Of a DNA stretch of 28,549 nucleotides, positions 493 to 1,832 are shown in pieces. The notes beneath the pieces are model-generated. The model did not search any database, was not told where the DNA came from, and was given only the letters and a program-made list of their open reading frames with translations. A program made the translations under genes and the position numbers. The stretch is from Escherichia coli. GTDB lineage: Bacteria > Pseudomonadota > Gammaproteobacteria > Enterobacterales > Enterobacteriaceae. Each line of letters opens with the position of its first letter. Position 1 is the first letter of the stretch. Location: NCBI RefSeq assembly GCF_003334385.1, contig NZ_QOWN01000056.1; one strand, written 5' to 3'.

Positions 493-1832
493 TCAATGAC
501 GGCCGAAAACGGGACGTTTACGGTCAAAGGTCCAGCCGGGGATCAGGTACTGCATCGGACCTGCGTCGTTACGCGCACCGCCAGGCAGACGTTTATAGGC
601 CTCATGTGCCTTTTGTACCTGTTCCCAGTCCAGTTCCACGCCCAGACCGGGCGCATCAGGAACGGCAATTTTTCCGTTTTTAATCTCCAGCGGATTTTGG
701 GTCAGGCGACAATCGCCCTCCTGCCAAATCCAGTGGGTATCGATAGCGGTAGGATTACCCGGTGCCGCCGCGCCCACATGGGTAAACATCGCCAGAGAGA
801 TATCGAAATGGTTATTAGAATGGCAGCCCCAGGTCAGCCCCCAGTCGTCGCAAAGCTGCGCCACACGGACTGCACCGGAAAGCGTCCAGAAGTGCGGATC
901 GGCAAGTGGAATATCTACCGCATTGAGCATCACCGCATGACCCATTTCGCGCCAGTTGGTGGCGATCATGTTAGTCGCGACGGGCAAGCCGGTCGCCCGT
1001 CGAAATTCCGCCATCACTTCACGTCCGGAGAAGCCCTGTTCTGCGCCGCATGGATCTTCGGCATAGGTAAGAACATCATTCAGCCCTTTGCATAAAGAAA
1101 TGGCTTCATCAAGCAGCCATGCACCGTTGGGATCAACGGTAATCCGCGCATCCGGGAAGCGTTTCTTCAATGCACGAACAGTGTCGATTTCTTGCTCGCC
1201 AGGTAACACGCCGCCCTTAAGTTTGAAATCTTTAAAGCCGTAGCGATCCTGTGAGGCTTCTGCCAGACGCACAACGGCTTCGCTGTTCATTGCTTTCTGA
1301 TGCCGCAACTGATACCACTCATGGTTGCCCGGCGTATTTTCCACATAAGGAAGATCGGTTTTGGTCCGATCACCGATATAAAACAGATAACCGAGGACGG
1401 TAATAGCCTCGCGTTGCTTGCCTGGCCCTAACAGTTCGCAGACCGGAACATTCAGCGCCTTACCTAGCAGGTCAAGCAAAGCGGCTTCCAGCGCCGCCAC
1501 GGCGTTAACGCGTAATTCAAAGGTCCAGGCACCTTTACCGAAGGTATCAAAATCGGCGGCCTGATTACCTTTATGCCCTGCTGGACCACTTTATTCAGTC
1601 GCGCAACTTCCTGGCCCAGAACCATCGGAATAGCATCGACAAGCGTCTGATAAATCACATCTCCGCCCGGCGCTTCACCAATGCCGGTATGCCCGGCGTT
1701 ATCGGTGAGTACCACAATATTGCGGGTGAAATATGCGTTATGTGCCCCACCAATATTAAGCAACATGCTGTCATGCCCGGCCACCGGAATGACTTTCATA
1801 TCAGTAATAACAGGACTGGATTGTGTCGCCAT
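493..1832 (-). pseudogene. gudX: gudX, glucarate dehydratase-related protein, disrupted by a 1-bp frameshift near 1573..1583
   Basis: Two same-strand overlapping ORFs: 1464..1847 (N-terminal part, [31 protein letters not shown]...) and 493..1500 (C-terminal barrel domain, 335 aa). The alternative frame through 1501..1570 reads [28 protein letters not shown], which aligns with the intact gudD N-terminus in this same window. Start ATG 1830..1832 is 1 nt from the gudP stop. Confidence 0.8.

Follow-up and report, generated by a model that had tools for sequence, protein, structure and literature searches.

The gud operon of Escherichia coli K-12 contains three genes in the order gudP-gudX-gudD. 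The gene gudD encodes glucarate dehydratase, which is represented by a structure (PDB entry 1ec7) and by the equivalog profile TIGR03247, for which the whole-protein cut-off is 828.7 bits. Its neighbor gudX (ygcY) encodes the glucarate dehydratase-related protein (GlucDRP), which has the enolase-superfamily fold in common with GudD. In the Protein Data Bank the "glucarate dehydratase-related protein" has an entry of its own (4il0), and it shares entry 4gyp with chains of GlucD. The intact GudX of K-12 matched TIGR03247 from end to end with a score of 748.1 bits, which is under the curated equivalog cut-off, and because of this the protein carries only the generic NCBI name "enolase C-terminal domain-like protein". 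The score is consistent with the view that GudX is a diverged paralog of glucarate dehydratase. To our knowledge, GudX has not been linked to any physiological activity, and a catalytic role has not been established. A literature search on gudX, GlucDRP and ygcY yielded nothing on the function of GudX or on the frameshift allele described below.

The DNA analyzed here, called the window in the following, is a stretch of 28,549 nucleotides from E. coli, and the gud operon occupies its left end on the minus strand. The order of the three genes matches the annotated K-12 locus, and the features are collected in Table 1. The window begins with exactly 77 nt of an insertion sequence and ends with the first gene (28473..28549) of the three tRNA-Met genes metZWV, which are arranged in tandem. 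Outside the gudX deletion the window was found to be 99.97% identical to K-12, with 7 SNPs in 28,472 nt, and the DNA sequence of gudP was identical to that of K-12. A 110-bp indel near the right window end turned out not to be a real difference, as the terminal tRNA-Met gene had been matched to another copy of the tandem metZWV genes. The alignment with the annotated K-12 locus also placed the true start of gudX at the ATG at position 1832, two bases past the gudP stop codon.

Table 1. Features of the gud operon and its left border in the window (positions of the window, with position 1 as its first nucleotide).
Feature	Position	Strand	Description
gudP	1834..3186	-	Glucarate/galactarate transporter, first gene of the operon, intact, ORF of 450 aa; annotation from the K-12 locus
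gudX pseudogene (glucarate dehydratase-related protein, GlucDRP/YgcY)	493..1832	-	Delimited by alignment with K-12
Deletion site in gudX	1576..1577	-	Between the two bases, K-12 has one more T, at gene position 257 in codon 86 (GTG, Val86)
Frame from the native gudX ATG	1464..1832	-	85 native and 37 out-of-frame residues, TAG at 1464-1466
Second gudX frame	493..1590	-	Begins directly after a TAA at 1591-1593; native codons 87-446 from 1575 down to 493
gudD 5' fragment	78..472	-	395 nt, comprising codons 1-131 plus the first two bases of codon 132
IS186/IS421 (IS4 family), terminal 77 nt	1..77	-	Abuts gudD and forms the left edge of the window

The original prediction, made from the letters of the window, had stated that a frameshift of a single base splits gudX into two overlapping ORFs. 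Two ORFs on the same strand and in different frames are indeed present, one at 1464..1847 (127 aa, with an upstream TTG as start) and one at 493..1500 (335 aa, starting with GTG). The plus-strand motif atgccctgctg, near which the frame switch had been suspected, is located at 1573..1583 and spans the lesion, and the other frame reads through this region as had been claimed. An alignment with the K-12 gene was performed, and it revealed a single-base deletion between window positions 1577 and 1576. The base-by-base comparison showed that exactly one nucleotide is missing, T257, the middle base of codon 86, so that gudX comprises 1340 nt in the window versus 1341 nt in K-12. The sequence at the lesion is CAGCAGGTGCAT in K-12 and CAGCAGGGCAT in the window, and the context of the deletion site reads TGGTCCAGCAGGTGCATAAAGG in K-12 versus TGGTCCAGCAGGGCATAAAGG in the window. 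Of the 1340 aligned gudX bases 1339 are identical to K-12, and the one remaining difference is a G-to-A exchange at window position 1261, which leaves the amino acid in the original gudX frame unchanged. When the T was put back in silico, a gudX gene of 446 codons resulted, as had been predicted for one added nucleotide, and the encoded enolase-superfamily protein was 100% identical to the K-12 GudX over all 446 aa. While gudX is intact in K-12, the copy in the window no longer codes for full-length GudX. Translation from the gudX ATG ends at a TAG 37 codons past the deletion, after 122 residues in total. The window thus lacks an uninterrupted gudX frame of about 446 codons, and compared with intact orthologs it has an indel that is not divisible by three and a premature stop, the two marks of a pseudogene by frameshift. 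It contains a pseudogene copy of the gudX/GlucDRP ortholog.

The occurrence of the deletion in other sequences was analyzed with a set of 5,426 complete E. coli genomes. A query of 351 nt around the deletion site matched 5,411 of these genomes, but a match of 100% was obtained in only three. A shorter query of 61 nt centered on the deletion was found exactly in four of the 5,426 genomes, and the other matches listed align with an extra base. The four carriers are SCU-104 (California), LR-33 (Ecuador), KE58 (Texas, from urine) and N18-04097 (Canada), and in all of them gudX is annotated in RefSeq as a "frameshifted" pseudogene. The deletion is therefore present in about 0.07% of the complete genomes, while more than 5,400 genomes have gudX without it, and an uninterrupted gudX is found in about 99.9% of the E. 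coli genomes. In public contig collections (NCBI, JGI, ENA, Logan) the exact 122-aa frameshift product is recorded on 430 contigs, and the 335-aa GudX fragment on 305 contigs. As the exact 122-aa product can arise from the deletion alone, a record of this product indicates that the deletion is present. One such record is from E. coli KTE14, in which the gene is split into a pair and the 122-aa product is listed as a "hypothetical protein". The DNA was read at two further places, a metagenome contig assembled with MEGAHIT and an NCTC assembly, and the identical deletion was found in both. The "frameshifted" gudX genes of the four carriers and the split pair of KTE14 have the identical deletion at the identical position. 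The gudX frameshift allele as such is already annotated, with a flag in RefSeq, and does not represent a new mechanism, structure or system.

Several further changes were seen in these sequences. The gudX pseudogene of N18-04097 has an additional change at the equivalent of window position 1424, which would correspond to Pro137Leu in the original frame. In KE58 the gene yqcE is annotated as "frameshifted" (18925..20203 of the extracted locus). In the NCTC assembly (GCA_900449675.1, locus 1646..4342) gudP is broken into two parts and a further indel is present in gudX around gene position 454, and these additional frame breaks may be indel errors of long-read sequencing.

It was considered whether the deletion exists only in the assembled sequence, i.e., whether the organism has the T and base-calling or consensus polishing removed it. 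Errors in the form of single-base indels are common in long-read assemblies, and the additional breaks in the NCTC sequence with the same gudX allele would fit this. However, the lost T lies in the wild-type context GGTGC and not in a homopolymer, so that the concern about a homopolymer error, which had accompanied the original prediction, does not apply. Furthermore, different laboratories in different countries had recovered the identical deletion in four complete genomes, and it was also present in a metagenome contig assembled from short reads and on the hundreds of public contigs mentioned above. Both ends of the window consist of exactly 77 nt of repeat, which fits a whole contig of a short-read de Bruijn assembly, and we infer that the window is a complete contig from such an assembler with k=77. 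In contigs of this kind such deletions are rare, and a deletion outside a homopolymer is unlikely to be an error. An assembly artefact at the gudX deletion thus appears very unlikely. A different reading accepts the deletion and assumes that the gene is still used, either because a programmed -1 ribosomal frameshift yields full-length GudX or because the two ORFs work as separately translated subunits. Both frames are open over 127 nt (1464..1590), so that a frame switch or a coupled restart would be geometrically possible, and the C-terminal ORF retains the entire barrel region (MR_MLE_C). Against this, the 127-nt zone was searched for slippery heptamers (XXXYYYZ), for base runs and for Shine-Dalgarno-like motifs preceding an in-frame start, and only one run, TTTT, turned up. 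No slippery heptamer of the type X XXY YYZ is present within 1464..1590, and the 20 nt upstream of each in-frame start candidate (GTG at 1500, TTG at 1479) contain no Shine-Dalgarno-like motif. Codon 86, at which the gene is broken, belongs to the N-terminal capping domain and is not at a domain boundary, and a product restarted from the GTG at 1500 would omit codons 86-111 entirely. In accordance, the 122-aa fragment matched TIGR03247 only over residues 5-85 and the match of the 335-aa fragment covered profile positions 110-439 (107.9 and 606.8 bits, respectively), and as one match ends at 85 and the other resumes at 110, codons 86-111 would be absent from any pair of products. A two-frame arrangement that is conserved, as expected for a programmed -1 frameshift, was not found among the complete genomes, since only 4 of 5,426 have it, and the split gene is thus not an arrangement that has been conserved. 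As far as can be judged from the sequence, there is no support for recoding or for a working split gudX, and this reading is regarded as extremely improbable.

The deletion could also have occurred more than once, i.e., the same T could have been lost independently in separate strains at a mutational hot spot, without common descent. The relationships of the carriers were therefore examined. In the window region the window and the four carriers showed only a small number of SNPs per 28 kb, and these were private to one sequence each, with the exception of position 15219. This position is in the intergenic region between fucA and fucP, within the divergent fuc promoter region, and the change is a C-to-T exchange on the gud-sense strand. 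An exact match with the T was found in three of 5,013 genomes, SCU-104, A29 and EC2001. The T is thus present in the window and in the carrier SCU-104, and also in A29 and EC2001, which do not belong to the four genomes with the exact 61-nt match, while LR-33, KE58 and N18-04097 combine the deletion with a C. This is a four-gamete conflict, because 15219-T is combined with the deletion in the window and SCU-104 but not in A29 and EC2001, and the deletion is also combined with 15219-C, and it requires recombination or recurrent mutation somewhere. Repeated loss of the T in gudX would be one solution, but recombination or a second mutation at 15219 explains the conflict equally well. In addition, the deletion site in gudX has no repeat, run or palindrome that could promote slippage, the allele is rare (four genomes in the whole set), and the carriers examined all have nearly identical K-12-like flanks with private SNPs only. 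A hot spot is thus a quite improbable explanation. In the 34 kb beyond the gud genes the four carriers differ from each other by 4-11 SNPs, and the window region (28 kb) together with the 34 kb beyond gudD contains too few informative sites to resolve the tree of the carriers. Inheritance of the allele from a single event would be the simplest reading, and the region alone does not prove it.

A haplotype comprising cysJIH, hok and IS421 is common to all four carriers and absent from K-12, and it was considered as a marker of the carriers. This had to be rejected, as the haplotype is widespread outside the four carriers, for example in E. coli C, ML35 and WG5. Some features distinguish the individual sequences. 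The SNPs at positions 1261, 5549, 20174 and 23707 of the window are absent from K-12 and from the four carrier genomes, and they distinguish the window from the carriers; the T at 5549 is shared by the window and TUM9754, in which gudX is intact. The CRISPR array that separates queE from ygcE (alignment columns of about 16524-16584) is shorter by one repeat-spacer unit of 61 bp in SCU-104 and N18-04097, and the same unit is present in LR-33, KE58 and K-12. N18-04097 (locus 1..289) has one tRNA-Met gene beside amiC, versus three tandem genes in K-12 and the other carriers.

Taken together, the gudX of the window is with a probability of roughly 90% a real and inherited loss-of-function allele, and thus an ordinary pseudogene. 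The spontaneous loss of one T in codon 86 shifts the reading frame, and translation from the native ATG stops at 122 residues, still within the N-terminal capping domain. All of the barrel domain is encoded in the approximately 970 nt that follow, which have neither a slippery site upstream nor a ribosome-binding site of their own, and the downstream codons of gudX would go untranslated. The allele is found in a small set of K-12-like isolates, which come from several continents and from different assembly routes, and it would have been inherited by descent. The loss of gudX is probably close to neutral, because GudX is a paralog without an established activity of its own.

The second gene of the operon that is damaged in the window is gudD. 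The original prediction had used it as an intact paralog for the alignment of GudX, but this was not correct, because only codons 1-131 and part of codon 132 are present, followed by IS186/IS421. Positions 78..472 of the window are identical to the first 395 nt of the K-12 gudD, and the identity stops at base 78. Positions 77..1 are an exact match of 77 nt to the end of an IS421-family transposase element that is annotated in RM10410, and the sequence at the junction (78/77) is ...GGGGGTAAACGT|CATAAGCGCTAAC... The remaining gudD fragment matched only positions 2-127 of TIGR03247. A query that included the IS end was found in multiple copies in E. coli, at up to 23 places per genome. The gudD::IS junction itself was absent from all 5,426 complete genomes, and the gudD::IS fusion ORF, which was looked up with two alternative starts in a large protein collection, was not recorded with either of them. 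In contrast to the window, the four carriers among the complete genomes have a full-length gudD without a pseudogene flag, and gudD is also full-length in the metagenome contig and in the NCTC contig. From this distribution we infer that the interruption of gudD is private to the strain behind the window and later than the gudX frameshift, and the operon would thus have taken a second, independent hit by IS186/IS421. Only one junction is visible, and instead of a simple insertion into gudD a larger IS-mediated rearrangement or deletion is also possible. Because gudD is cut at codon 132 and the role of GudD is established, the D-glucarate branch is probably dead, and the strain can probably not dehydrate and use D-glucarate.

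Insertion sequences in the gud operon were also observed in other strains. In RM10410 (extracted locus 2663..~4000) an IS421-family element is located in the 3' end of gudX, and the gudX CDS comprises 1299 nt versus 1341 nt, and in WP7-S17-ESBL-04 the gudX/gudD match overlaps an IS1203-family element. Both strains resemble the window in having an IS in this operon, but the insertion sites differ. The query with the IS end had 23 places in SCU-104 versus 4 in K-12, and the IS421 element appears to have expanded in SCU-104. In the same strain (locus 33429..35084) the cysH-hok-IS421 region continues into a truncated cynT and into cyn, lac and mhp genes, and this cysH/cynT junction looks like an IS421-associated rearrangement.

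It is tempting to connect the two lesions and to speculate that in a commensal K-12-like lineage D-glucarate catabolism was lost step by step under selection, with the lesions as a record of this loss. The older and shared frameshift in gudX would have come first, and the private cut of gudD by IS186/IS421 second. The frameshift might lower the expression of gudD by polarity, or it might remove GudX as a partner of GudD, which is considered because both proteins are present in PDB entry 4gyp. Either a lowered gudD expression or a lost partner could then have relaxed the selection on gudD. This scenario is regarded as unlikely.

With the gudX allele as an ordinary and probably inherited pseudogene, the general biological weight of the finding is small, and it is one among many lineage-restricted pseudogenes of E. 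coli. What is added to the known allele is the second lesion in the gud operon of the window strain, the private one in gudD. The frameshift is a real allele, and annotators should not "repair" gudX. The deletion probably marks a small K-12-like sublineage, and its members with an intact gudD, i.e., SCU-104, LR-33, KE58 and N18-04097, are natural gudX nulls that can be used to probe the role of GudX.
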